From assembly GCA_965242925.1 (NCBI GenBank), contig CBDEUM010000042.1:1-64000 (forward strand): a stretch of 64,000 nt of DNA. Reading direction: 5' to 3'. Below, piece after piece: positions 47,326 through 62,573 of the stretch. The notes below the pieces were generated by a model. That model was not told the DNA's origin. It was given only the letters and a program-made list of their open reading frames with translations, and searched no databases. Each line of letters opens with the position of its first letter. Within the stretch, counting starts at the first letter, position 1. This stretch comes from Roseibacillus sp. GTDB taxonomy: Bacteria; Verrucomicrobiota; Verrucomicrobiia; Verrucomicrobiales; Akkermansiaceae. A program made the translations under genes and the position numbers.

Positions 47326-49854
47326 TTAATTCTCAAATAAATGGTGTTTTGGATCACCGGAGGAGAGGAGGTAGGACAGGAGATCCAGGATATCGTTGTC
47401 AGTCATGATGGAAAGGAGCCCAGGGGGCATCATCGAAATCCCGGAAGGCTCGATGGACAAGATCTCTTCCGCTCTGATCGCCCTGGTTTCGTTCGGTCTC
47501 ATCATGTCCGTGGTGATGCGGTATACATCACCCCCCGTTCCATCCCTTTTCCTATTGAGGTTCATGATCCGCCCCACCACTTTCTCGCCATTCCTGAGGC
47601 TGAAGACGCTGGCGCCGTACTGGTCACTGATCTCCCTGCCAGGGTCGACGATGGATTCGAGGAGGTCGTGTGGACTGAATTTGCCGGAGACCGCAGTGAG
47701 ATCGGGACCTACCGCCCCCCCCTCGTTGCGGAAGCGGTGACAGACATGACAACTGCCCACCCCGAACATCTTCCGACCGTTGGCAAAGTTGCGGCCCCCT
47801 TCCAACCCTGCTCCCAGGAGTCCCTGCAGGTCTTCCATCTTCCAGGACCTGATGAATTTGCGGGGCTTGCTGCTGAACTGGGGCGAGTTCTCCCCGGCCT
47901 TGGTCTTAAGGATCCTCTCCAGTTCCGGGGTCTTTTTATCAGCAGGCAGAGAAGCCATGGCATCTCTCCTGATATCTGCGAGGTAGGCCCTGAAACGGGG
48001 TCCCCCGTGGTAATTATCAGCCCGGGCGAGCCACCGGAAATACTTCACTCGAAGGGCCGGGGTCCATCCCTCCTTCATAAACCGGAGATTCATGGCGTAG
48101 GTGATCTGCTCTTCCTGGCTGGTCGAATTCTCAAGAAGTGCAATGGCCTTGGGCACAACGGAGGGAGCCCCCAGGAAGGCCAGCAGCATAGTTAGCTCAC
48201 GATTTTCCCCTGGCGAAGCTGCGGGGTAGATACCATCAAGCCACACGAGGAGCCGGCCCCCGATCTCCCCCTGCGGGGTTCCCCCCCGTGCCAGGGCCAG
48301 GATAAGAGCGCGCAGGAGGTTGAGTCGGTCCTGCTTCCCTCCGATTTTCAGGTAATCGAACTCGAGCACCTTGCCAATCACTTCTCCTCCCGAGCGCAAT
48401 CCGTCGGCGCGGGCCAGGGCGATCAGCCCAAGCGCCGCACGGTTGCTGTCCTCCTCCCCGAGGACAAGAGCCTTCCACAGTTCCACCGGATGCTTCTCGA
48501 GCACCGCACGCGCGGCATGCCGCAAGCCACGGTCGCTTCCGTCCGCGATATTGGTCCAAAGCCTGGCGAGATCCTCCGGTGTCTGCAGCCTGGCACCCTT
48601 GCGCAGGAGCAATTCCATTTTCTGACGACTCGCCCTGGGAGAGTGCCGCGGCAGAGTGGATTGCTTGGGCAAACCAACGCCTTCCTTCCCACGATAGGTG
48701 ACGCGATAGAGTCCGGACTGCACCCGTCGCCCTCCGATGGTGAAATACATGGCCCGGTCCCTGGGGTTGATCAGGATGTCAGTGAGAGGAAGAGGGGTCG
48801 CACTGGCAAATTCCTCGAAGCTACCGCCATAGGTCGATCCCTTCTCACTGAGGTGCACGGCATAGAGCTTTCCGTAAGACCAGTCGCAGGCGAAGAGGGC
48901 CTCCTGGTACTTTCGCGGGAACTTCGCTCCATAGCCGAAACACACGCCGGTGGGTGATCCCGGCCCGATATCAACCGCCGCACCAAAGGTATCGCGGTAG
49001 TGTTCGGGGAACTTGGCTGATCCTGTTCGCCAGCCAAAGTCAGCCCCGCTGATGACATGGTTGATGCGGGTGGGCCTGTACCAGGGGGTATTCAGATCCC
49101 CCTCCATGTCCGCGTCATAGGTAAAGAGTTCTCCCTCGCGGTTAAAGGCGGCATCATACTGATTGCGGAAGCCGGTCGCGATGATCTCCCAGCTCTCGCC
49201 TTCGGGATCAATCTGCGCGATGTGGCCGACCGGGGCCTTCGCCCCCTTCATGAAGTGCTCCATGGGGGGCAGGAGCTGGTCTTCGCCCCAGAGTTCCGGT
49301 ACCCGGGAATGGGTGTAGTCCCTGGGCAACTGGGTCTGGTTTCCCAGCACCACCATGAGGCTCCTGCCATCGGGGGTGGGAAGAATGGCGTGCGGACCAT
49401 GCTCACCACCGATGACATCCAGCTCCTTGATGCTCACTACCTTGTCGAACTTGTCATCATCGTCTGTATCGAGGAGACGGAAGACGCCCGAACCGGTCCT
49501 GCTGCTGCGCGAGTTAACCACCACATAAAGGCTGCCAAAGGCATGGCAGAGCCCCTGGGCGTGCCCAATGGGAAGATCGATGGTCTCGATGGTGGCCGGG
49601 TCGAGGGCCTTGTTGGCCGGAGGAGCGGGGAAGCGGTAGAGGCTGCCGTACTGATCGCTCACAATGAAGCGCCCCTTGTCGTCCTGGCACATGGCAACCC
49701 ACGATCCCTGCTGGTCCCGCGGGACCGAGTAAAGGAGCTCGACCGCAAAGCCCTCCGGCACCTTGATCTTCTCTCCCGGGGTAGCCGTGCGCTGGGCCGG
49801 GAGAGGGGCCAGAGTCAGCACGTTCAATAGGGCGACGGAAGTGAACCGCTTCAT
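47326..49854 (-). CDS. PVC-type heme-binding protein (beta-propeller dehydrogenase-like domain + HEAT + cytochrome c)
   Basis: VPEGFAVELLY, GEHGPH, GFRNQYD, GPGSPTG, CHVCHRF..EGGAVGPDLT, LLESIVDP, SMMPPGL. Confidence 0.9.
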   Translation of the reverse strand: MKRFTSVALLNVLTLAPLPAQRTATPGEKIKVPEGFAVELLYSVPRDQQGSWVAMCQDDKGRFIVSDQYGSLYRFPAPPANKALDPATIETIDLPIGHAQGLCHAFGSLYVVVNSRSSRTGSGVFRLLDTDDDDKFDKVVSIKELDVIGGEHGPHAILPTPDGRSLMVVLGNQTQLPRDYTHSRVPELWGEDQLLPPMEHFMKGAKAPVGHIAQIDPEGESWEIIATGFRNQYDAAFNREGELFTYDADMEGDLNTPWYRPTRINHVISGADFGWRTGSAKFPEHYRDTFGAAVDIGPGSPTGVCFGYGAKFPRKYQEALFACDWSYGKLYAVHLSEKGSTYGGSFEEFASATPLPLTDILINPRDRAMYFTIGGRRVQSGLYRVTYRGKEGVGLPKQSTLPRHSPRASRQKMELLLRKGARLQTPEDLARLWTNIADGSDRGLRHAARAVLEKHPVELWKALVLGEEDSNRAALGLIALARADGLRSGGEVIGKVLEFDYLKIGGKQDRLNLLRALILALARGGTPQGEIGGRLLVWLDGIYPAASPGENRELTMLLAFLGAPSVVPKAIALLENSTSQEEQITYAMNLRFMKEGWTPALRVKYFRWLARADNYHGGPRFRAYLADIRRDAMASLPADKKTPELERILKTKAGENSPQFSSKPRKFIRSWKMEDLQGLLGAGLEGGRNFANGRKMFGVGSCHVCHRFRNEGGAVGPDLTAVSGKFSPHDLLESIVDPGREISDQYGASVFSLRNGEKVVGRIMNLNRKRDGTGGDVYRITTDMMRPNETRAIRAEEILSIEPSGISMMPPGLLSIMTDNDILDLLSYLLSSGDPKHHLFEN

Positions 49855-50142
49855 CGGAAATTCAAGTCTCAGACTCCAGATTTCCTGCTCCTGTTCCAGT
49901 TCAATCCGCAGCCAGATCTCCGCCAGTTCCTCATTTGTTCAAAAGGGAGGGATTTCGCCTTTCCGGAAGGTGGACAAAAAAACACCCGTCCAGCGGCCCT
50001 GCTGTCACGATTTTCCGGAGCACCGGGTTTCTCGGACGCAGCCCTGCAAGCCCAACCGTAAGATCTCGAAAACCCTCTTCCCCATTTGCCCCTTGCCCAA
50101 CTGTGTTCTGACCGTTCCCCTTGCCACCTGTCCCACCACCGC

Positions 50143-50751
50143 ATGGAAGAGCCGTCTCCAGCGATCACCAACGAGCTCCTCGAGCGCGTCAGGGCAGGTG
50201 ACGAATCGGCCAACCGGGACCTGGTGGAAATCCTCTATCCCACCGTGCGGGCCAATGTCCGCAACCACCTGCGGAGACAGGCTGATCACGACGACGTCTC
50301 CCAGGAAGTCTTCCTCAAGATCTTTCTCAAGATCGACCAGTACAAAGGGCCGCAACCCTTCGAGCACTGGGTTTCCCGCATCGCGGTGACCACCTGCTAC
50401 GACTGGTTGCGCAAACACCGTGCCCGGCCCCTGGTGGCGTATTCGGATCTCACTGAGGCCGAAGTCGAGATCATCGAGAAGAGCCGCCCGGCCACCACCA
50501 CCGGGATTTCCGACACCCACCGGGAGCTCTTTTCGGGTCTCCTCGACAAACTGATCGCCACCCTCAACCCCCGGGAACAAATCGTGATCCGCCTCCTCGA
50601 TCTGGAGGAACACTCTGTCCGGGAGATTTCTGAGCTCACCGGGTGGGGCGCCAGCAAGGTGAAAGTCACCGCCATGCGGGCCCGCCGAAAACTGGCCGAA
50701 CAGCTCCAACGCCTGGAAACCAGCCACGAGCGGGAGGAGGGCGACCGCTGA
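50143..50751 (+). CDS. ECF-type RNA polymerase sigma factor
   Basis: DDVSQEVFLKI, FEHWVSRIAVTTCYDWLRK (region 2), SVREISELTGW..SKVKVTAMRARRKL (region 4). Confidence 0.93.
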   Translation: MEEPSPAITNELLERVRAGDESANRDLVEILYPTVRANVRNHLRRQADHDDVSQEVFLKIFLKIDQYKGPQPFEHWVSRIAVTTCYDWLRKHRARPLVAYSDLTEAEVEIIEKSRPATTTGISDTHRELFSGLLDKLIATLNPREQIVIRLLDLEEHSVREISELTGWGASKVKVTAMRARRKLAEQLQRLETSHEREEGDR

Positions 50752-50777
50752 ACTCCACCCAACTCCACCCAACTCCA
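50751..50777 (+). repeat. 10-bp tandem repeat AACTCCACCC x2.7
   Basis: AACTCCACCC AACTCCACCC AACTCCA fills the sigma/anti-sigma spacer. Confidence 0.85.
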
Positions 50778-50782
50778 AAACC

Positions 50783-51094
50783 ATGTCCGATCCTAACGAA
50801 GACAACCACTGGAACCGCCTGGTCGATGCCGCCAGGGACGCAGGGGCCACCACAGACGATGCCCGGGAGCAAAAGGCTCCCTCCGCCTTCGTCTCCGGGG
50901 TGATCACAATGCGGGAAGGACTATGGAAGTTTGCAACAACCGTACTCTGGCGCCGCTGGTCGCTGTTGGCGGCCCTTCTTGCAATTGCGCTCTACCTCAT
51001 CTTCTACTTTGTCATGAAATCAAATCCACCCGCCCGGGCTCCCACCCCGGCGCCGTCCCAAACTCTTCCCCAACCTCCCGACCCCGAACAATGA
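50783..51094 (+). CDS. Putative single-TM anti-sigma factor
   Basis: Directly downstream of the ECF gene; short cytoplasmic part (W.RLV.AAR...APSAF), one TM, Pro-rich tail. Confidence 0.65.
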   Translation: MSDPNEDNHWNRLVDAARDAGATTDDAREQKAPSAFVSGVITMREGLWKFATTVLWRRWSLLAALLAIALYLIFYFVMKSNPPARAPTPAPSQTLPQPPDPEQ

Positions 51095-51654
51095 AGCCAA
51101 CCTTCAAAGACTACCTGAACATTGTCTTGGCCCTTCTCGCCATTTTCCTCTGTGGCTACGGGATCGGATTCCTGTTGGGCGAACGCAAGGAGCAAGGCAA
51201 TCAACCTCCCCCACCCGCTCCCTCCTCCCAGCCAGCCCCCATCGTCGATTGGGAGTCCTGGGAACGCTCCACATTCCAGACCATTGAGGGGGCCATTGGC
51301 GAACTGACCCCGGAACAACGGCAATCCATCCGGCGCGAGGTCTCCGAGACCGCCAAGCGAATCAGAACCGCCCGGCAATCCGGTCGCAGGGAATTCCAGG
51401 CCCTCCACCAACGTCTGAAGCAACATCTCACCCCGGAACAGCAAACCAGAGCTTCCGGGATCCTCCCCCAATTGAGGGAGAAATGGAATGAATTCACTTC
51501 GTTCACCTCTCTAGGTGTAACCATGGGCAAATCGTCCTCGTCAGCCCTTATATGGAGGCTTTCTGCCCACTCGGTTAATCCCCCCCAGGGCCGGGAGGGC
51601 AGAGAGCTTCCCATTTTTCCGCCTTTTTTCATCAGCTCCTTCACAAATACTTAA
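51091..51654 (+). CDS. Membrane-anchored helical protein with LTPEQ motifs (Spy/CpxP-like); true 3' end uncertain
   Basis: ATGA overlap with previous gene, N-terminal TM, GELTPEQ and HLTPEQQ. Confidence 0.65.
   Translation: MKPTFKDYLNIVLALLAIFLCGYGIGFLLGERKEQGNQPPPPAPSSQPAPIVDWESWERSTFQTIEGAIGELTPEQRQSIRREVSETAKRIRTARQSGRREFQALHQRLKQHLTPEQQTRASGILPQLREKWNEFTSFTSLGVTMGKSSSSALIWRLSAHSVNPPQGREGRELPIFPPFFISSFTNT
51516..51542 (+). promoter_or_regulatory. ECF-type promoter motif, copy 1
   Basis: TGTAACCAT-gggcaaatcgtcct-CGTC. Confidence 0.7.
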
Positions 51655-51711
51655 CGCAACCAGATCTCGACATGGAGGTTCCATTCAGGTGAAGATCAGT
51701 CCCCTAAGCGC

Positions 51712-52470
51712 ATGAGATTCGGTAACCTCATATTCGGTGTCGCCCTCCTTCTGCTGGCTGTCACCCTTGCCCTGACCATCACCTTCCGGAACGATCCCGA
51801 GGGTGCATCGGCTGAACGGCTGCAAAACGACGCGACTTCCCCGGCACGCAGCATCGGAACCGCCGCGCCCCGGGGTTCCACCACTGCCCCCGTCGGTCGC
51901 CGCAATCCTGTCAGATCGCCACGTAAAAAGCTCCCCGACGTGAACGAACTCGAGGTGGTCATGGACAACAGCCCGGCCACCCGGGACCTGAGCCCGACGC
52001 AACGCCAGGACATCGCCAAACGCGTCCCATGGGTTCAGCAAGCTGCCCTCTCCCGGCTTGGGAAGATGGCCGAGCGGCTGGACCTCTCCCCGATACAGCA
52101 GCACAAGGTCTTCCCACAACTGCTCCGGGCCACTACGGGCTATCACCCGGCCATGGTCATCACCTACCCTGCGGGAGCCTCCCTTCCCTCTGAGGAGCTT
52201 GCCGCCAACGAGAAGTCTCCCGATGAGGCCATCCACGACTCCCTCGATCCCGACCAGCAGGAAGACTTCCTTCAGCAGAAACTCGACGATCAGGCCTGGT
52301 GGGAGGAAATCGTTGCCCAGCTGGAGGACGATTTCGATGCCTCTGTTGCCGGCAACAACGGACCCGTGGCCGCCGGTCAGGCTCCCCCCGAGCAGGAAGC
52401 CGTTGCCGAGCCCCAACTCGAGCCCGAGCCACAGCAGGGCGTGAACCTCTTCGACCTCTTAAACGAATAA
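51712..52470 (+). CDS. Membrane-anchored/secreted hypothetical protein
   Basis: N-terminal hydrophobic segment, LSPTQ/LSPIQ/LDPDQ helical motifs, WWEEI, acidic tail. Confidence 0.75.
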   Translation: MRFGNLIFGVALLLLAVTLALTITFRNDPEGASAERLQNDATSPARSIGTAAPRGSTTAPVGRRNPVRSPRKKLPDVNELEVVMDNSPATRDLSPTQRQDIAKRVPWVQQAALSRLGKMAERLDLSPIQQHKVFPQLLRATTGYHPAMVITYPAGASLPSEELAANEKSPDEAIHDSLDPDQQEDFLQQKLDDQAWWEEIVAQLEDDFDASVAGNNGPVAAGQAPPEQEAVAEPQLEPEPQQGVNLFDLLNE

Positions 52471-52483
52471 AATCGACTTTGGG

Positions 52484-52510
52484 TGTAACCATTGTACCTC
52501 CAAGCTCGTC
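52484..52510 (+). promoter_or_regulatory. ECF-type promoter motif, copy 2
   Basis: TGTAACCAT-tgtacctccaagct-CGTC, about 44 bp before ATG 52554. Confidence 0.8.
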
Positions 52511-52553
52511 GATCCCCTTAACCAGAGAACCTTTCCCGAAAGGCCCCAATAAA

Positions 52554-53243
52554 ATGAAGATGAAATACCTCCCTCTGATAACCATCGCTGTCGGCATCGG
52601 TTTCGCCAGTGCCGGACGTGAGCGAACCTTTGGTGACGGGAATCTTCCCGAAATCCTCGAACAGTTCGACCTCAACGACGACGGACAGATCGACGAAGAG
52701 GAGCGTCAGGCCGCCCGCGAAGCCCGCCGGGCTGCCCGGGCTGAACGCCGCGCTGCACACATCGCGGAATTTGACACAGATGCCGATGGCGAACTCTCCG
52801 ACGAAGAGAGGGAAGGCGCCCGCGAAGCCCGCCGGGCCGCCCTTGAAGCCAAGCGCGAGGAAAAATTTGCTGAAATTGCAGGTGATGACGGATGCCTTGA
52901 CTCCGACGAATTTGCCGCCCTTCCCCCGCTCGAAGGCAGAGATCCGGAACGCTTGGCCGCCATCTTTGACCGACTGGATTCTGATGACGACGAATGCGTT
53001 GACCTTGAAGAATTCACCGCTCGCCTTCGTCATGGCCGTAAGCCGGGTGGACATCGTCCGCCGCAGCCGCCCACCCGTCCCGAGCCGCCCACCCGTCCCG
53101 AGCCACCCACCCGTCCCGAGCCACCCACCCGTCCCGAGCCACCCAACCCGCCCGGGCCACCTGAGCGCCCCGACGACAACGATGACGATAATGATGAAGC
53201 TCCGGATCCGCGCACGCCGCCCCGCTTTGGCGGCAGGGGGTAA
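52554..53243 (+). CDS. Secreted EF-hand protein, paralog 1 (Pro-rich tail)
   Basis: Signal peptide; loops DLNDDGQIDEEE, DTDADGELSDEE, IAGDDGCLDSDE, DSDDDECVDLEE. Confidence 0.88.
   Translation: MKMKYLPLITIAVGIGFASAGRERTFGDGNLPEILEQFDLNDDGQIDEEERQAAREARRAARAERRAAHIAEFDTDADGELSDEEREGAREARRAALEAKREEKFAEIAGDDGCLDSDEFAALPPLEGRDPERLAAIFDRLDSDDDECVDLEEFTARLRHGRKPGGHRPPQPPTRPEPPTRPEPPTRPEPPTRPEPPNPPGPPERPDDNDDDNDEAPDPRTPPRFGGRG
53067..53138 (+). repeat. 18-bp tandem repeat x4 encoding PPTRPE
   Basis: CCRCCCACCCGTCCCGAG x4. Confidence 0.95.
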
Positions 53244-53276
53244 ATCTTTTCGGTTCTTTCCCATCCCCATCGCGAG

Positions 53277-53308
53277 GAGGCAACCTGAACCACGGGTTGC
53301 CTCTTTTT
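53277..53308 (+). terminator. Intrinsic terminator after EF-hand paralog 1
   Basis: GAGGCAACC-loop-GGTTGCCTC followed by TTTTT. Confidence 0.8.
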
Positions 53309-53338
53309 CTTGAACAAGGACCGGTTCCTTCCGCCCCC

Positions 53339-54328
53339 ATGGCAAGACCCGTCTCCATTTTGTTATCCCTCCTGCTGCTCTCCGTGCTCGAAATTGCACG
53401 GGCCGAACTGCTTTACTTCACCGATTTCGACGAGTTTCCCGAAGGTGATAACAAATGGGATGACTTTGATGGATGGCAGGCCAGCGACAATACCAGCGGA
53501 GCCCAAGCCATCGTAGCCGACCTCGTGGGGGGGGCCCTGGGAAACACTGCCACCCTGGGCTTCAACAGGCCCAACCGCGCCCTCACTACGGTGGCCAAAT
53601 CGATCAACTACGACCCCATCGCGACCGGCACGCCCCTCGTGTCCTTCAACCTCCTCTTCGGGATTGAGGACTCCACCGACTTCACCAACTACCGGCGCGA
53701 CGATTTCTTCATCACCTTCTACAACAACCAGGGCGCGCCCCTGGCCGCCATCCGCATCTCCAATACCGACACCGACTACGGCTTCTGGTACCGCAATGGC
53801 AGCCCCCAGTCGTCAGGCTACGAGGAAATAGACACCGGCCTGGATTTTATCCAGGGCGAACTCCATGAGCTGACCGGAATCATCGACTTCGAATCCAACC
53901 GCTGGACTGCGGAGATCGACGGCCTTCCGCTCTTTATCGACGTGGCCTTCAATGGCACCAATCAAGCGCTCTACTTCGGATTCATTGCTATCGAGTGGCA
54001 GATCGACGAGGGATCTCCCGGCAGATACGGTGACAACTTCCTCCTGCTCTCCGATCTGCGCATTGAAACAGTGGAAGACCCGCCCCCGCCAGTTGTGATT
54101 GACTCCATTGGCCACGATGCGAGAGGTGATATCCGGATTTCCTGGCAGGCCACTCCCGGGTTCAACTACGCCGTGGAATACTCCGATGACCTCCTGAACT
54201 GGCAGGGCGACCTCCCGTCCTCGACCTTCACTTCCCCTCCTGCCCTTCAGCCGTTCATCTTCACCGATACTACCGTCCTGCAGGCAGGAGGGCGCTATTA
54301 TCGCGTCCGCCAAACCCGGGCCGAATAA
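53339..54328 (+). CDS. Secreted hypothetical protein (lectin-like beta fold possible) with verrucomicrobial C-terminal domain
   Basis: Signal peptide, Asp/Phe-rich body, YAVEYSDDLLNW...FTDT...RYYRVR. Confidence 0.8.
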   Translation: MARPVSILLSLLLLSVLEIARAELLYFTDFDEFPEGDNKWDDFDGWQASDNTSGAQAIVADLVGGALGNTATLGFNRPNRALTTVAKSINYDPIATGTPLVSFNLLFGIEDSTDFTNYRRDDFFITFYNNQGAPLAAIRISNTDTDYGFWYRNGSPQSSGYEEIDTGLDFIQGELHELTGIIDFESNRWTAEIDGLPLFIDVAFNGTNQALYFGFIAIEWQIDEGSPGRYGDNFLLLSDLRIETVEDPPPPVVIDSIGHDARGDIRISWQATPGFNYAVEYSDDLLNWQGDLPSSTFTSPPALQPFIFTDTTVLQAGGRYYRVRQTRAE

Positions 54329-54447
54329 GAACGGAAGGAGCCTCTCCAAATCCCCTAAAAGGGCCATCTCTCGTCCTGGCTCCAACCCCGAAACGGGTTA
54401 TGCGCCAGCGGCAATTCTCCAAAACCCTGGCAAAATCCCTGACAAAA

Positions 54448-54474
54448 TGTAACCATCCCTCCGCCACTCCCGTC
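54448..54474 (+). promoter_or_regulatory. ECF-type promoter motif, copy 3
   Basis: TGTAACCAT-ccctccgccactcc-CGTC, about 64 bp before ATG 54538. Confidence 0.8.
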
Positions 54475-54537
54475 TATCCCCTTGAAAGACACGGCAGCAG
54501 GCCCCGTCTCACTGAAACCTCAAGCACAAAAAGAACC

Positions 54538-55149
54538 ATGAAGATCAAATACCTCCCGATCCTCGCAATTGCCCTGGGCATAGGGATCGCAACCACCATC
54601 GCCGGACATCGCACCTTCGGTGACGGCAAACTCCCCGAAATTCTTGAACAGTTTGACCTCAACGAGGACGGCGTGATTGACGAAGAAGAACGCCAGGCGG
54701 CCAAGGAAGCCCGCCGTGCCGCGCGTAGCGAACGCCGTGCCGAGCACATTGCGGAATTCGATACTGACGGCGACGGCGAACTCTCCGACGAAGAAAAGGA
54801 AGCCGCCAGAGACGCCCGGCGCGCTGCCCTCCAAGCCAAGCGAGAGGAAAAATTTGCCGAGATCGCAGGTGAAGACGGCAGTCTTGATCTTGACGAATTC
54901 GCTGCCCTGGCTCCCTTTGAAGGTGCGGATTCCGAGCGCGTGGCTGGCATCTTTGCCCGCCTGGATGATGACGAAGACGGCGCTGTCACTCTTGAGGAAT
55001 TTGGCTCCCGCCTGCGTCATCATGGACGCCGACCCCGCCACCACGGCCCCCGCCACCACGGCCCCCGCCATCGTCCCCACCACCATCGCCGAGGCGGTGG
55101 CGAAGGCGACGAAGATGACGAAGGCGAAGGCGAAGGCGACGACGCCTGA
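54538..55149 (+). CDS. Secreted EF-hand protein, paralog 2 (His/Arg-rich then acidic tail)
   Basis: Signal peptide; loops DLNEDGVIDEEE, DTDGDGELSDEE, IAGEDGSLDLDE, DDDEDGAVTLEE. Confidence 0.88.
   Translation: MKIKYLPILAIALGIGIATTIAGHRTFGDGKLPEILEQFDLNEDGVIDEEERQAAKEARRAARSERRAEHIAEFDTDGDGELSDEEKEAARDARRAALQAKREEKFAEIAGEDGSLDLDEFAALAPFEGADSERVAGIFARLDDDEDGAVTLEEFGSRLRHHGRRPRHHGPRHHGPRHRPHHHRRGGGEGDEDDEGEGEGDDA
55033..55071 (+). repeat. 15-bp tandem repeat x2.6 encoding PRHHG
   Basis: CCCCGCCACCACGGC x2 plus CCCCGCCAT. Confidence 0.85.
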
Positions 55150-55186
55150 TTCCCGCAGACCGATAGTAGTTCCAGAAAATTTAATC

Positions 55187-55220
55187 AGAGGCGGCCCGAC
55201 AGTGGGCTGCCTCTTTTTTT
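55187..55220 (+). terminator. Intrinsic terminator after EF-hand paralog 2
   Basis: AGAGGCGGCCC-gacagt-GGGCTGCCTCT followed by a T run. Confidence 0.88.
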
Positions 55221-55372
55221 GGACGGCTCCCCCACGGTTTCCGCGCCTGCTTTCGCTGGCCTCCTCTACACTTGGAGGACAATCGGTCCCTCAAGCCTGC
55301 CAATATTCGTGAACCTTCCTCCGCCCGAAGTGTGGCCTTTCCAATCGAAGGGAATTTAGCGAAGAACTGTGT

Positions 55373-57594: not shown

Positions 57595-57656
57595 GCTCAA
57601 TCGCTAACGCGGCGCTAACTTAGTTGGCACGTTAAGATATGCTAAGCACAAATCGG

Positions 57657-57680
57657 AAATGTGACGATATCGTAACATTT
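57657..57680. promoter_or_regulatory. 24-bp near-perfect palindrome / Pho-box-like repeat upstream of the porin
   Basis: AAATGTGACGATATCGTAACATTT; minus strand reads GTTAC-gatatc-GTCAC (11-bp period). Confidence 0.6.
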
Positions 57681-57839
57681 TTGACTATTCGCGCGTCGTG
57701 AGTCCCTTCCGCAAGCTGTCCCGGAGATACGCCCTGCCTGAGTCATGGACAGCGTCACTCAGCGCCGATAGATGCAACACACGGATATAAGCGGTTACAG
57801 GTCTCATGTGACCCTCCCTTCACGGCCCTGAAGCAATCC

Positions 57840-60683
57840 CTACTTTACTTCAATCCGGTATGCCCCGGATTTGACCAGGTTGAGAGTAATACGTCCCTTC
57901 TTTTCCCTCTGGACGAATCCGCCCTCAAACCGGTGGTCTTCTCCGGGAGCCTTGCCGTCGATGCGAACGCTGGCCTCGGGGCCCGCTGGAAGCCGGACGG
58001 TAGCCGTGGTCTGGACAGGAATGTCACACTCGTAGAGGAGACTGCCATCCTCCCGGCGTTTCCAGTGAACGTCGATGGGCCCGCGACAGGAGCTGTAATG
58101 AGCCTTGACCCAGCTAATGGAAGCGGCCCCGGCCTGTCGCTCCGGAATCCAGGGCTCCAGGCGAATCCGTTGGAATCCGGGAATGGTCGTATCAATCCCG
58201 GCCACCTTGGACATCAGCCACCCGCTCACCGCACCAAAGCTCTGATCCAGTCCGGGATCCTGGGCCCGGCGTTTTTTCCCGGTTGGCCCCCAGGTGCTCC
58301 GCAACGTTGTTGCCCCCTGGTCGATCCCGTAACCCCAGGAGGGATACTTTGGGGTTTGCAGGAGCCTGAGAGCGACCTTGTGGTTGCCGGTCCAGGTCAG
58401 CACCGGCAGGAGAGATCTCGTTCCGAGGGCCCCGCTCGTCATGCCGCTGCTGGCAGGGCCTTCCTTTGCAGCCAGAAGGGCAAGGAGGTTTTCAATAACC
58501 TTGGTCTTTGACGCGTCGGTCAGCAATCCGAAGCGCAGCGCCATTACCTGAGCGGTCTGGGATTTCACCTTCAGGCTTCCATCCTCATTCACAAAATTCT
58601 TCCGGAACTCTGCCTGCAGTTCGACGAAGGTCCTGTTATAGGTCAGATGATTGATGGGATTGCCCGCCACGCGGGACATTTCCGCCATGAGCCGGAAATC
58701 GAGGGCGAGCATGGCCAGGTCAATGAACCTTGAAGGAGTGGGGTCGTTGAGGTTCAGACGGTCACCTCGACTCGTTCCAAACACTCTCCCGCGTCCCATG
58801 CGATGCGCATCCTGGCGGGCCTGGAGATATTTTTTCATCGCCGTCCAGTTCTCTTTCACCACCTCTTCATCGCCATACATCCACCAATGATCAAAAACCG
58901 CCAGGATCCCGGCATCAGAAAACCCTGCCCCGTAAGAGAGCCGATCCTCAGCAAAGGGGAAAGGGGCATGCCTGCGGTAGTAGCCCTGCCTGTCCCGGGC
59001 TCCCTGTAATTCCCTGAACCACTTCCGCAGGAAGGCTGCGTTGTCCGTGTGATAACAGGCGGATTTCGCAAAGAGCTGGACCGCTCCCAGGTCTCCCATG
59101 CGCTCGTTAACCAGCTCGGAGCTCGCGGGAAGGTCGATCCAGTTGGCACGTTGGGTCCAGACACAGTTTCGAAAAATCCGGTTCACCCGCTCGTCACTGC
59201 ATTCAAACCTGCTGGTAAGAGGCGTGTCGCTGTGGATGACCAGTCCCTGGAGAAGATCCGGCCCAGGCTTTCCGGGGAGTCCCTCCACCTCGGCAAAACG
59301 GAAGGTGTGAATCGTAAAACGCGGGGTCCAGCTCTCGGCAGTAGCACCCTTGCACACGTAGGTGTCGGTGGCGGTGGCATCCCGTTGACGATTCAGGGAA
59401 AGATCACCGGCCTCCACCCCATAGCGAAGGGTGATCTTCCGGCCCTTCTCCATGCCCTTGACCTGCAGCCGGACATTGCCGGTGAAGTTCTGGCCGAAAT
59501 CAAAGAGATAGCACCCGGGCCGGGAATTCGTGACGGTGACCGTGACGGGCTTTCTCTTCTCGACCACCCGGACAGGCGGTGCCGGGTAGCCTTCCAGGGT
59601 CCGTGGTTTCACGAAGCCGATTTCTGCCGTCCGCCGTCCGGTGCGATCCTGGAAAGGAGTCTTCACCGGCTTGCTGGAGGAGGCCTCTATCGCCTGTTCC
59701 CAAGCCTGATCATCGTAGCCGGTCGCCGACCAGCCCTTGAGTTCTTTGTTGGCGTCGTAGCCCTCACCCATGAGCAGATCCGCCTCAAACTCCGGCCCGG
59801 TGGTCACTTTCCAGGTCAGGTCACTGGTCACGATGCTTCCGGTCCCGTCGGCGAACTCAAGGTGGAGCTGCGCCAGAAGGGCCGGCGTCTTGCCATAGAT
59901 GTTGCGCCCGGTTCCGAAAGGACCAAACTTCTTCCGCTTTCCCGATCCGACGTAGCCGGCATACCAGCCGTCCGCCACAATCGCACCGAGACAGTTTTCT
60001 CCCTCCCGTATCTGCGAGGTGACATCGTAGCTGTGATAGTAGGTGCGCTGAGAATAGTCGCTCCACCCGGGCGCCAGATAGCCATCCCCTACCTTTTTCC
60101 CGTTAAGTTGGAGCTCGAAGATTCCCAATGCGCTTACATGAACCTGGGCGCGCACGATCTTCTTCTCCGCCGCAAAGGTCTTCCGATAGTAACGGGGCGG
60201 AGGAAGGTGGAGCTGAAGGGGATTTCGATGCAGAGGTTGTCCATCCTTGAAGGCAATCCACTTGGCCTTCCAGTTCCCGGCGCCAAGAAGGCCCATCGTG
60301 AAATGACCGCTCTCGCTCCAGGGGGAGGCGACATCCTTCTCGTCCCAGACCTGAATCTTCCAGAAGACCCGCTGCCCGGACTGGAGGGGCTTTTCCCCCT
60401 TATAGAAAATGAGGTAGTTGCTGGAACTCCTTGTCTTACCCGTATCCCACAAGTCGCCCTCATGGCGGGCCAGGGTGGCCTCGGAGCTGGCTGCCAGGAT
60501 ACGGTAGGCCTGCTGGGATTTCCCTTTCCCCTCCGTCCTTAAAAGCCAGCTCAAGCGGGGGACCTCCGCGTGCAGACCGGTTGGGTTCACCCGGTGCTCA
60601 CAGGTCAGATTCGTTACGACCAGATTCTCGCCAAGAAGCGGGAGGATCAGCAGGACGTTGAGGAGGAGGATTGGTGCTCTCAT
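57840..60683 (-). CDS. GH78 alpha-L-rhamnosidase-like protein with degenerate catalytic motifs
   Basis: PRLSW, LWDTGK, SALGIFE..LNG, LAPGWSDY, DFGQNFTG, PRFT.H.FRF, SQTA, YPSWGY..QGATT, PGF..I.LEP give the GH78 architecture. Confidence 0.85.
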   Translation of the reverse strand: MRAPILLLNVLLILPLLGENLVVTNLTCEHRVNPTGLHAEVPRLSWLLRTEGKGKSQQAYRILAASSEATLARHEGDLWDTGKTRSSSNYLIFYKGEKPLQSGQRVFWKIQVWDEKDVASPWSESGHFTMGLLGAGNWKAKWIAFKDGQPLHRNPLQLHLPPPRYYRKTFAAEKKIVRAQVHVSALGIFELQLNGKKVGDGYLAPGWSDYSQRTYYHSYDVTSQIREGENCLGAIVADGWYAGYVGSGKRKKFGPFGTGRNIYGKTPALLAQLHLEFADGTGSIVTSDLTWKVTTGPEFEADLLMGEGYDANKELKGWSATGYDDQAWEQAIEASSSKPVKTPFQDRTGRRTAEIGFVKPRTLEGYPAPPVRVVEKRKPVTVTVTNSRPGCYLFDFGQNFTGNVRLQVKGMEKGRKITLRYGVEAGDLSLNRQRDATATDTYVCKGATAESWTPRFTIHTFRFAEVEGLPGKPGPDLLQGLVIHSDTPLTSRFECSDERVNRIFRNCVWTQRANWIDLPASSELVNERMGDLGAVQLFAKSACYHTDNAAFLRKWFRELQGARDRQGYYRRHAPFPFAEDRLSYGAGFSDAGILAVFDHWWMYGDEEVVKENWTAMKKYLQARQDAHRMGRGRVFGTSRGDRLNLNDPTPSRFIDLAMLALDFRLMAEMSRVAGNPINHLTYNRTFVELQAEFRKNFVNEDGSLKVKSQTAQVMALRFGLLTDASKTKVIENLLALLAAKEGPASSGMTSGALGTRSLLPVLTWTGNHKVALRLLQTPKYPSWGYGIDQGATTLRSTWGPTGKKRRAQDPGLDQSFGAVSGWLMSKVAGIDTTIPGFQRIRLEPWIPERQAGAASISWVKAHYSSCRGPIDVHWKRREDGSLLYECDIPVQTTATVRLPAGPEASVRIDGKAPGEDHRFEGGFVQREKKGRITLNLVKSGAYRIEVK

Positions 60684-60868: not shown

Positions 60869-61477
60869 TTAGCGCCTGCGGCGAATCAGGAGCGACAGCC
60901 CAGCGAGGCCAATAAGAAGGCTGCTGGAAGGCTCCGGGACGAGTGGGACAAGGGCAAGGGCCGCATTCTGGCTAGGAATAGGTCCTGGCTGGAGCGTGAA
61001 GGTATCAAAATCGCCAAGAAGAACCTCAGCGGTGTTATTGACGTTCACGGTCTGCACTGCAGGCTCGGAACCGGGAAAGTTCCCAACTCTGAGCACAGCT
61101 GCCTGGGTGGAGCTTGCCAGATCACCACCGTTCCCGAGAACGAGGTAAATAGGAGCTCCGGCCCATGCGGTGCCTGTAATGTCGCTTCCATTGTTGGAGA
61201 TACTGTAGGTCCCGGCGAACGGTGCTGCGGTAATTGCTCCACTGGCACCGTCATAAACGGTGAAAAGGTCGGCAAGGCCGGCCGAAGTGAGAGTGTTGAG
61301 TGCGCTTGCATCGGAAATGCTTCCGATGGCAGCGAACCCGCCGTCAACAGCGGCCCCGGTATTGTCAACGACCGACTGGGTATTCACCGGCCCTGCGTTG
61401 TTTGTCACCGTGACGCTGGCGCCAAAGGCGGAGACAGACGTCAGGGCGATAATAGATACTACGTGCTTCAGTTTCAT
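60869..61477 (-). CDS. PEP-CTERM sorting domain protein
   Basis: Signal peptide MKLKHVVSIIALT..; C-terminal VPEPSSSLLIGLAGLSLLIRRRR. Confidence 0.92.
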   Translation of the reverse strand: MKLKHVVSIIALTSVSAFGASVTVTNNAGPVNTQSVVDNTGAAVDGGFAAIGSISDASALNTLTSAGLADLFTVYDGASGAITAAPFAGTYSISNNGSDITGTAWAGAPIYLVLGNGGDLASSTQAAVLRVGNFPGSEPAVQTVNVNNTAEVLLGDFDTFTLQPGPIPSQNAALALVPLVPEPSSSLLIGLAGLSLLIRRRR

Positions 61478-61565
61478 AGTGGTGTGTAATGAGTGATTGG
61501 TAAGGGAAGGGTTTCCGGTGAGCAGCGGGGGGCAACCCCTCAGTGCTCGCCAGGAAAGTCCCAAA

Positions 61566-62573
61566 TTAAAGATCCTCGTAATACGCCGGCGGGGTAACAG
61601 GTGCATTGAAATCTGCACCAGTGCCATTCTGGCTGATGATGATGCCCGAGGTCAGTTCGACGTCCGTACCACTGGCGAAGGTGGCGGAGTTAAGCCATCC
61701 ATCGAACCCGGCGAGGGTCGAGTAGAAGTACTGGTCATATCCGCTGGCGTCTGCCTTGGGGAGATAAACCGTGTCAGCCTCGGTGGGGTCTGCGGCGGCG
61801 GAACCCGTCACGCTGTTGGCAAGACCACTGTTGCCGAGGGTGGAACCCACGGGGTAGGCGGTGCCAAGGTAGGTGAAGGCCTCGCTGACGGGGAGGTTCG
61901 TGCTCGTGGTCTTGACCATTCCGGTCACGACCAGCGAGATGTCCTGGGCTCCCTTCTCGTTGACGATGATTCCGTCAACATAGTTGAGGGGCAGGCCACT
62001 GGCATCAGCGAAGGTGGATGCATCCAACCAGCCGTCAAAGCCGGCGAGGGTGGAGTAGAAGACCTGGGTGAAGCCCGCTCCGTTCGGAACGTAGATGGTG
62101 CTTGCCTCGGTGGGGTCGGCGGCGGCGGAACCTGTGAGGCCCGCGGAGTTGTCGGCACCGAAGATGTCAGCAATCGTCTTGGCCGCGCGGATGGTGTAAT
62201 CCGTTGCATCGGCAGCCGCGACACCGGCGAGACCGGTCAGGTCGTTGTTGCTCCAGCTGTCCACTTCAATGACGGTGCCTTCGGAAGCCGTGGCGCCGGT
62301 AATCTCGACGAGGTAACGGGCTCCTGCGGTGAGGACGTCGGTAAAGTTGACATCGGCATCGCTCAGGCTTGTCGCGGTCTGGGAATCAAATGTTCCAGAA
62401 ACCACTTGGGGTTCATGGAGACGAATTCCGAGGACATTGAATTTGCCTGCGTTGATCGTGAGGGTTTCGTAACCGCCTGCGCCTGATACTGCCTCCTGCG
62501 AGAGGGCAGTGCCGGAGAGGAAGCTAAGCGAACCGGCAGCGAGTGCCGCTTTCTTTAGTGTCGTTGCTTTCAT
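61566..62573 (-). CDS. Secreted verrucomicrobial TIGR02597-like protein with internal duplication
   Basis: Signal peptide, GGYETLTI, YLVEITG...EG, TIADIFG, YPVGSTL..SGL; repeated TGSAAADPTEA and FYSTLAGFDGWL. Confidence 0.7.
   Translation of the reverse strand: MKATTLKKAALAAGSLSFLSGTALSQEAVSGAGGYETLTINAGKFNVLGIRLHEPQVVSGTFDSQTATSLSDADVNFTDVLTAGARYLVEITGATASEGTVIEVDSWSNNDLTGLAGVAAADATDYTIRAAKTIADIFGADNSAGLTGSAAADPTEASTIYVPNGAGFTQVFYSTLAGFDGWLDASTFADASGLPLNYVDGIIVNEKGAQDISLVVTGMVKTTSTNLPVSEAFTYLGTAYPVGSTLGNSGLANSVTGSAAADPTEADTVYLPKADASGYDQYFYSTLAGFDGWLNSATFASGTDVELTSGIIISQNGTGADFNAPVTPPAYYEDL

Follow-up and report, generated by a model that had tools for sequence, protein, structure and literature searches.

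We analyzed a 64-kb stretch of Roseibacillus sp. DNA (positions 1-64,000 of contig CBDEUM010000042.1, GCA_965242925.1; hereafter the window, to which all coordinates refer) that harbors a gene cassette headed by an extracytoplasmic function (ECF) sigma factor gene. The sigma factor gene is followed by two small open reading frames, ORF2 and ORF3, by ORF4 and ORF6 and by two genes for exported EF-hand proteins, with three copies of a promoter-like motif (P1, P2 and P3) interspersed among them. We consider it likely that the three motifs are conserved GTAAC-N17-CGTC promoters read by the adjacent ECF, constituting a predicted envelope-stress circuit that extends across Verrucomicrobiota. The features of the cassette are given below; counts out of 80 refer to Verrucomicrobiota ECF loci from several families, the best 80 of 328 confirmed loci of a partial genome scan, some of which overlap with the same-genus relatives, kin among them not being independent.

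50087..50113, plus strand: P0 relic, a decayed autoregulatory promoter, TGCCCC-N17-GACC (register anchored on conserved flanks)
50143..50751, plus strand: ECF sigma factor, 202 amino acids, sigma2 and sigma4 regions (PF04542, PF08281; TIGR02937 above cut-off), no C-terminal extension
50783..51094, plus strand: ORF2, 103 amino acids, putative anti-sigma factor (homologue in 72/80 loci)
51091..51475, plus strand: ORF3, natively ~127 amino acids, membrane-anchored helical LTPEQ protein, Spy/CpxP/Metal_resist-like (homologue in 73/80 loci)
51516..51542, plus strand: promoter P1, TGTAAC-N17-CGTC (kept in 13/14 same-genus loci covering the site)
51554..51612, plus strand: conserved hairpin RNA, ~22-bp stem and C-rich apical loop, starting 12 nucleotides (nt) behind the P1 -10 box
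51655..51681, plus strand: a further conserved element ahead of ORF4, (C)GCAAC-N17-GTTC, whose spacer contains TCGA (13/13 loci examined; single genome copy)
51712..52470, plus strand: ORF4, 252 amino acids, anchored in the membrane at its N-terminus, with helical LTPxQ repeats and a conserved YHP motif (homologue in 50/80 loci)
52484..52510, plus strand: promoter P2 (exact TGTAAC-N17-CGTC in 11/13 same-genus loci)
52554..53243, plus strand: exported EF-hand protein 1, 229 amino acids, three canonical calcium-type loops, Pro-rich tail (Pfam above cut-off)
53277..53308, plus strand: terminator-like 9-bp stem followed by T5, behind EF-hand gene 1 (read from the sequence; not listed by the terminator scanner)
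53339..54328, plus strand: ORF6, 329 amino acids, signal peptide, predicted beta-rich, unnamed Verrucomicrobiota family (homologue in 37/80 loci)
54448..54474, plus strand: promoter P3 (4/4 same-genus loci with the second EF-hand gene directly behind ORF6, one with a 16-nt spacer)
54538..55149, plus strand: exported EF-hand protein 2, 203 amino acids, sharing 75% identity with protein 1, with a tail that is His-rich and acidic (Pfam above cut-off)
55187..55222, plus strand: intrinsic terminator-like hairpin closing the cassette (terminator scan)

The promoter motif and its link to the adjacent ECF

A pattern search of the window recovered TGTAACCAT-N14-CGTC at 51516, 52484 and 54448, all on the plus, coding strand and with 14-nt spacers, just as a preliminary description of this DNA had reported, and found no further match even when two mismatches were allowed; a sigma-70 promoter scan gave no match. 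The exact pattern occurs three times in the whole 4,581,007-base genome, always in the cassette, compared to 0.056 copies expected from the 12 TGTAACCAT 9-mers, an expectation that is partly circular because the pattern was derived from the same three sites. Since the pattern is post hoc, the independent test is its conservation in relatives. The relaxed form, TGTAAC-N17-CGTC, is found six times in the genome (2.25 expected), three times in the cassette, twice before distant genes and once within a gene; the copy at C29:172111, which falls within a coding gene on the opposite strand, was rejected as a promoter. A weight-matrix scan also ranked the three cassette sites first, though its training set was partly out of register and we do not rely on it. 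TGTAACC lacking CGTC also occurs within 57600-57860 (minus strand), upstream of a phosphate-selective porin O/P gene, and was not counted.

The three spacers, described earlier as unrelated, share 4, 2 and 6 of their 14 bases. CCCTT follows CGTC at +2, +4 and +4 in P1, P2 and P3, respectively, as described previously, but like the 'AT' behind TGTAACC it is conserved only among close relatives, and a comparison of 116 promoter sites leaves (T)GTAAC(C)-N16/17-CGTC as the conserved core. P2 and P3 share ATCCCCTT behind CGTC and each precedes one of the two 75%-identical paralogues; a single duplication is thus the probable origin of both, and they do not count as independent sites. As deposited, the window places P1 within the ORF3 frame (51091-51654), as an extra base near 51449-51451 frameshifts the last ORF3 codons and extends the frame to 51654. 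This base is missing from the contigs of two public runs, and thus probably reflects an error of assembly or a difference between strains; given these contigs and that the ORF3 of relatives (124-130 amino acids) stops ~40 nt before P1, sequence comparison places P1 natively between genes.

Among the 79 loci with enough flanking sequence, GTAAC-N16/17-CGTC was found within 200 nt upstream of the ECF orthologue in 42 (shuffled controls: mean 0.09, maximum 1), at a distance of 43-97 nt from the gene. The reverse-strand motif was upstream of none of the 79, and no minus-strand site was present in any of the 80 loci. Upstream of the ECF there were no matches at a spacing of 18-19 nt and four at 14-15 nt. 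Homologues of the EF-hand proteins were found in 42 of the 80 loci, and the motif lies upstream of 43 of the 49 EF-hand genes these loci contain. The boxes are conserved with free spacers across the genus, the family and other Verrucomicrobiota families, and the layout kept before both the targets and the ECF, an AAC-type -35 and a CGT-type -10 separated by 16-17 nt on the coding strand, is that of ECF promoters. Motif, gene order, strand, conservation and position before genes are direct observations, and the pattern is the one commonly left by an ECF that regulates itself along with its targets. As the motif precedes the ECF orthologues and the neighboring EF-hand genes and is never found on the opposite strand, the adjacent ECF very likely reads it. 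The assignment of the promoters to this ECF, put forward in the preliminary description, thereby gains support.

It is improbable that the sites serve a different ECF encoded elsewhere, the adjacent one being no longer linked to them. The ECF's own site has decayed in this genome, a first look gave 15 ECF candidates in the genome, and similar motifs are predicted for other groups (ECF120, TGTAACAAA/TCGTCAT; ECF235, TGTAAC); however, across the phylum the motif tracks the upstream region and neighbors of this ECF family, and the other five ECF-like hits of the genome all lack such a site upstream, this from a profile that recovered only six ECF-like hits. That the three matches are relics of duplication or due to chance, as the few flanking bases shared by P2 and P3, their paralogous genes and the post hoc pattern might suggest, has a negligible probability, being already refuted by the conservation of boxes with free spacers in the 80-locus test.

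The ECF was matched in 19/19 same-genus genomes and belongs to a family of 7,664 proteins (E<=1e-40) that includes cultured Verrucomicrobium isolates with an intact site; among named relatives, the closest are metagenome-assembled genomes of Roseibacillus and Akkermansiaceae. Three loci of the same genus (L050, L051 and L052) carry a paralogous ECF clade with the same cassette and a 16-nt spacer (TGTAAC-N16-CGTC). A divergent gene encoding an 842-amino acid heme-binding PVC-type protein (47326-49854, minus strand) is found in synteny with the ECF across much of the genus.

The site upstream of the ECF gene itself has decayed. The P0 relic is in register with an intact TGTAAC-N17-CGTC in 3/17 same-genus loci, and in a quick tree of the ECF (2 of the 80 loci, short matches, left out) the window ECF falls in a clade of 25 rows (SH-aLRT 99), 24 of which are without P0. 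Many loci outside the clade carry ECF-ORF2-ORF3-ORF4 behind a single site, while part of the clade has a site before ORF4. Since the own-gene site is mostly decayed in the clade of the Roseibacillus genome, the feedback loop is probably broken there, and we infer that positive feedback was lost and control relocated to the outputs. The sequence TTGCCN-N17-TCC(C/T)CT at 50093-50121, which overlaps the decayed P0 and looks conserved in the aligned same-genus loci, may be a housekeeping promoter of the ECF operon.

Conserved sites also precede genes distant from the cassette. The site at C14:387864 lies before a Peptidase_M10 (matrixin) gene of 1048 amino acids, which is present in 8/19 genus genomes and is preceded by the exact motif, with differing spacers, in all eight; the site at C33:72281 lies before a PA14-domain gene and is kept in 6/6 loci from five relatives. 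As the motif is kept before both of these distant genes, the regulon is not self-contained, contrary to what had been proposed. Moreover, in two relatives a ~170-nt block holding P1 and a shortened, loop-less version of the hairpin lies before a CotH/LTD gene (L044, the main locus of G006, and L077:1371-1532 in G008:C20), an arrangement that has the appearance of promoter capture. In L077 the divergent gene encodes another CotH-like protein with an EF-hand loop. Further copies before secreted-protein genes of relatives, L071 (G016:C36), L072 (G004:C6), L075 (G014:C60), L084 (G017:C77) and L079 (G044:C57), suggest lineage-specific regulon members; the Pfam scan of distal loci left out L071 and L079.

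A predicted structured RNA behind P1

The hairpin at 51554-51612 folds with -39.5 kcal/mol (z -4.9), and when the regions behind the 116 promoter sites are ranked by fold stability, P1 copies account for 7 of the top 8. In an alignment of 13 genomes, 95% of the cells pair and 8 of 18 pairs show a compensatory change, with many G-U exchanges; this directly observed covariation was reached by none of 500 shuffles, a test that relatedness can inflate, and by no slid control. The best conserved unpaired part is the loop, which keeps CCCC(C/A)C. A covariance model found the hairpin in 16/19 same-genus genomes, of which 12 had supplied training sequences, and in 0/41 other genomes, and a second search found it in 0/135 genomes of other genera in the family. 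Rfam had nothing matching 51554-51612, even with E relaxed to 5, and only chance hits elsewhere. The hairpin was also considered as a repeat element, which was rejected given its single copy in the genome.

A conserved stem exposing a C-rich loop behind a sigma-specific promoter is the arrangement seen in C-rich-loop RNAs of the GsrN/6C type, and we considered whether the hairpin is an independent base-pairing small RNA, in which case ORF4 would be served by the element at 51655, or a cis-acting 5' leader or terminator hairpin. The hairpin lacks a conserved U-tail, an RNA contig (51491-51668) crosses it and two relatives carry the loop-less version before the CotH gene, which together favor a leader over a free small RNA. 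A search of the cassette for a target site of the loop, with no genome-wide search made, found none common to 6 genomes. On balance we give the small RNA and the cis-acting element even chances.

It is rather doubtful that the hairpin is a mere terminator or 3' stabilizer of the ECF-ORF2-ORF3 message, unlinked to transcription from P1. It does lie 80 nt behind the native ORF3 stop, with a U-rich tail in the Roseibacillus genome, and a contig of an RNA library (51392-51623) ends 11 nt behind it, though this library has broad cover of the stretch and could be DNA. Yet in 13/13 aligned genomes the hairpin starts near +5 of the predicted P1 transcript, its best conserved unpaired part is the C-rich loop, the U-tail is not conserved, and the hairpin travels with P1 in the duplicated block.

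The proteins of the cassette

ORF2 has two helical segments predicted to be cytoplasmic, a single hydrophobic helix (residues ~60-78) and a short Pro-rich tail; it has no Pfam match, and a search of the PDB gave only membrane-helix noise. In the ORF3 alignment the only invariant columns are G22, G26, L72, Q76, L113 and Q117, so that both LTxxQ turns (L72..Q76 and L113..Q117), a trait of Spy and CpxP, are invariant, and the model is helical. PF07813 hits were obtained for 5/18 family members, and a profile search of the PDB reached Spy at E 0.9, with no specific match.

Each EF-hand protein harbors three DxDxDG-type 12-residue loops ending in Glu, which is the form of calcium EF-hands. Lanmodulin carries a Pro at loop position 2; the two proteins here have none, and score 21-24 bits against its NCBIfam cut-off of 135. 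Their tails are of low complexity (PPTRPE repeats at 53057-53165; HHGPR repeats and acidic runs at 55030-55146) and differ in length among the strains in the RNA runs. ORF4 represents an unnamed Verrucomicrobiota family, and the single-sequence model of ORF6 was unusable (pLDDT 40).

The element at 51655 is a possible second or degenerate ECF-type promoter. Just before it (51639-51655) lies an imperfect 11-bp direct repeat, CTTCAC-N5-CTTAAC, which is clearer in some relatives and resembles a response-regulator box; when it was read as Pho-box-like CTTAAC-N5-CTTAAC, three matches were found in the genome, none before a recognizable phosphate gene. Further along the window, two secreted-protein genes (60869-62573, minus strand) each have a long leader, and one product has a PEP-CTERM-like tail.

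The proposed circuit and its relation to known systems

By analogy with known ECF systems, ORF2 would hold the sigma factor at the membrane as its anti-sigma factor, and the anchored Spy-like ORF3 may serve as a periplasmic partner of ORF2 and the sigma factor, or as a chaperone. The sigma factor would be freed by a cue from the envelope, with a lack of calcium or the misfolding of exported protein as the most likely ones, and would then transcribe ORF4, the two exported EF-hand calcium-binding proteins and ORF6, as well as the two distant genes for secreted proteins, the matrixin protease and the PA14-domain protein. Its own operon, too, would be driven by the sigma factor in the ancestral layout; in part of the clade a copy of the site lies before ORF4, and in the genus the P1 transcript would begin with the structured C-rich-loop RNA.

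We lean towards calcium shortage or envelope misfolding as the cue, and consider a heavy metal unlikely, because ORF3 lacks conserved His and Met ligands and the secreted outputs have calcium-associated domains. The corresponding alternative, that the module is a CnrHYX-like heavy-metal sensor, with ORF3 binding Ni, Co or Zn and the outputs serving to detoxify metal, has some points in its favor: weak PF13801 hits in 11/18 ORF3 homologues (best E 1e-4), the same gene order and an EF-hand neighbor in ECF290, at least as that group's description goes, and the His-rich tail of EF-hand protein 2. The metal site of CnrX is built of His, His, Glu, His and Met ligands, whereas the ORF3 alignment has no invariant His, Met or Glu. 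Moreover, no efflux pump or multicopper oxidase was found among the cassette genes and targets examined, and the targets are secreted proteins with domains linked to calcium, as both PA14 and matrixin domains are. Metal sensing, one of the functions suggested in the preliminary description, is accordingly a weak proposal, and we regard the alternative as unlikely.

Several observations weigh against the envelope-stress circuit as a whole. The ECF of the Roseibacillus genome has no intact site of its own. ORF3 is below the Pfam cut-offs (18-20 bits for PF13801, with a curated cut-off of 29.2 bits), and its fold search returned only generic helical matches (best Z 6.4). In addition, in assembled contigs from 7 marine RNA runs, which cannot show transcript starts and may hold DNA, only 2 of the 14 5'-most contig ends listed for the EF-hand genes coincide with the predicted start (52516 in X3 and 54481, beside adapter, in X5), while 6 begin upstream of the -10 box end and the remaining ones lie further downstream. 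As these are contigs, possibly containing DNA, the ends at the predicted starts are only a weak hint of the promoters. Both EF-hand genes are covered by contigs in 7/7 runs, and in 5/7 the ECF operon is without cover where the EF-hand genes are covered, which we do not count as evidence.

The trio of ECF, one-helix anti-sigma factor and a protein resembling Spy is itself already known, being described for ECF03, ECF111 and ECF290. With these groups the cassette shares the gene order, a one-helix, here putative, anti-sigma factor at +1 and an LTXXQ/Metal_resist-like protein at +2 (family hits below cut-off), but their promoters (TTAAACC; TTGAACCT-GTCTAAA; ACGG-CGT) do not match GTAAC-CGTC. In Bacteroidales the trio is reported to act as sigma factor, inhibitor and Spy (ECF03 CirY/CirZ-spy of Phocaeicola vulgatus, PMC13114119; BT_4647-4649, bioRxiv 10.64898/2026.08.10.744002), and these systems share with the cassette both the three-gene operon and a small regulon of neighbors and a distant gene. 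They differ in their predicted -35, TTAAACC, in their autoregulation, where here the own-gene site is decayed, and in their outputs, which here are EF-hand, matrixin and PA14 proteins.

Going by its entry in the ECF classification (PMC7826278), ECF290 has a Pfam-less one-helix anti-sigma factor at +1, a membrane-bound Metal_resist protein at +2, an EF-hand neighbor in one subgroup and CGT in its -10; it is however confined to Proteobacteria and Planctomycetes, has ACGG as -35 and a single EF-hand gene, at -1. The corresponding entry for ECF111 gives an anti-sigma factor at +1 and an LTXXQ or Metal_resist protein at +2, with a promoter unlike the cassette motif, and that for ECF120 a promoter close to the motif, a DUF4252 neighbor and a link to heme (PMC7826278); as far as these two entries go, we found no mention of Verrucomicrobia. 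CnrHYX of Cupriavidus metallidurans, placed in ECF291 in the same classification (PMC7826278), likewise comprises an ECF, a small membrane anti-sigma factor and an anchored helical periplasmic partner, yet in reversed gene order, and its metal ligands and efflux outputs are not seen here.

ECF control of an EF-hand gene has a precedent in SigV-CaBP of Caulobacter vibrioides, where an ECF reportedly switches on the neighboring gene for a periplasmic protein with three EF-hands, with induction by calcium chelation and acid (PMC13171946). By the same account SigV-CaBP differs in its promoter (GGAAA / CGTTCA), its anti-sigma factor was not identified and it comprises one gene rather than a multi-promoter cassette. 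For the hairpin, the nearest parallel is GsrN, described as an ECF-driven non-coding RNA with a cytosine-rich loop, usually beside the sigma locus and detectable in a narrow taxon only (PMC5869019). GsrN has several domains, mapped targets and a place in the SigT general stress response, whereas here there is one long hairpin, a candidate small RNA, without an Rfam match.

Within the Verrucomicrobia literature covered, we found no description of the system or of the promoter in such a context, in agreement with the preliminary description, though the ECF group tables (PMC7826278) may already classify the ECF. The preliminary description stands in part: it missed the structured RNA behind P1, the decayed autoregulatory promoter and the fact that the trio is known in other phyla.

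To conclude, the locus is well supported as an ECF regulon. The logic of the circuit, an ECF, an anti-sigma factor, a Spy-like partner and nearby outputs, is familiar, and its newest part is the unannotated RNA. As a tentative extension, the locus may represent an unclassified Verrucomicrobiota ECF clade with an envelope regulon linked to calcium (comprising buffers of the EF-hand type, secreted matrixin and PA14 proteins and also, in two relatives, CotH proteins), of which Roseibacillus-type marine bacteria lost the feedback and gained a C-rich-loop small RNA that pairs with G-rich mRNA sites. If true, the sigma factor would gain a post-transcriptional arm like that of GsrN, in a phylum for which we found no sigma-linked small RNA in the literature. 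For a phylum in which gene regulation has been little mapped, the analysis provides a sigma factor, a consensus for its promoters and a list of targets, along with a candidate regulatory RNA and a traceable series of promoter loss, gain and capture; and since the ECF family is large and includes cultured Verrucomicrobium isolates with an intact site, the system is testable.

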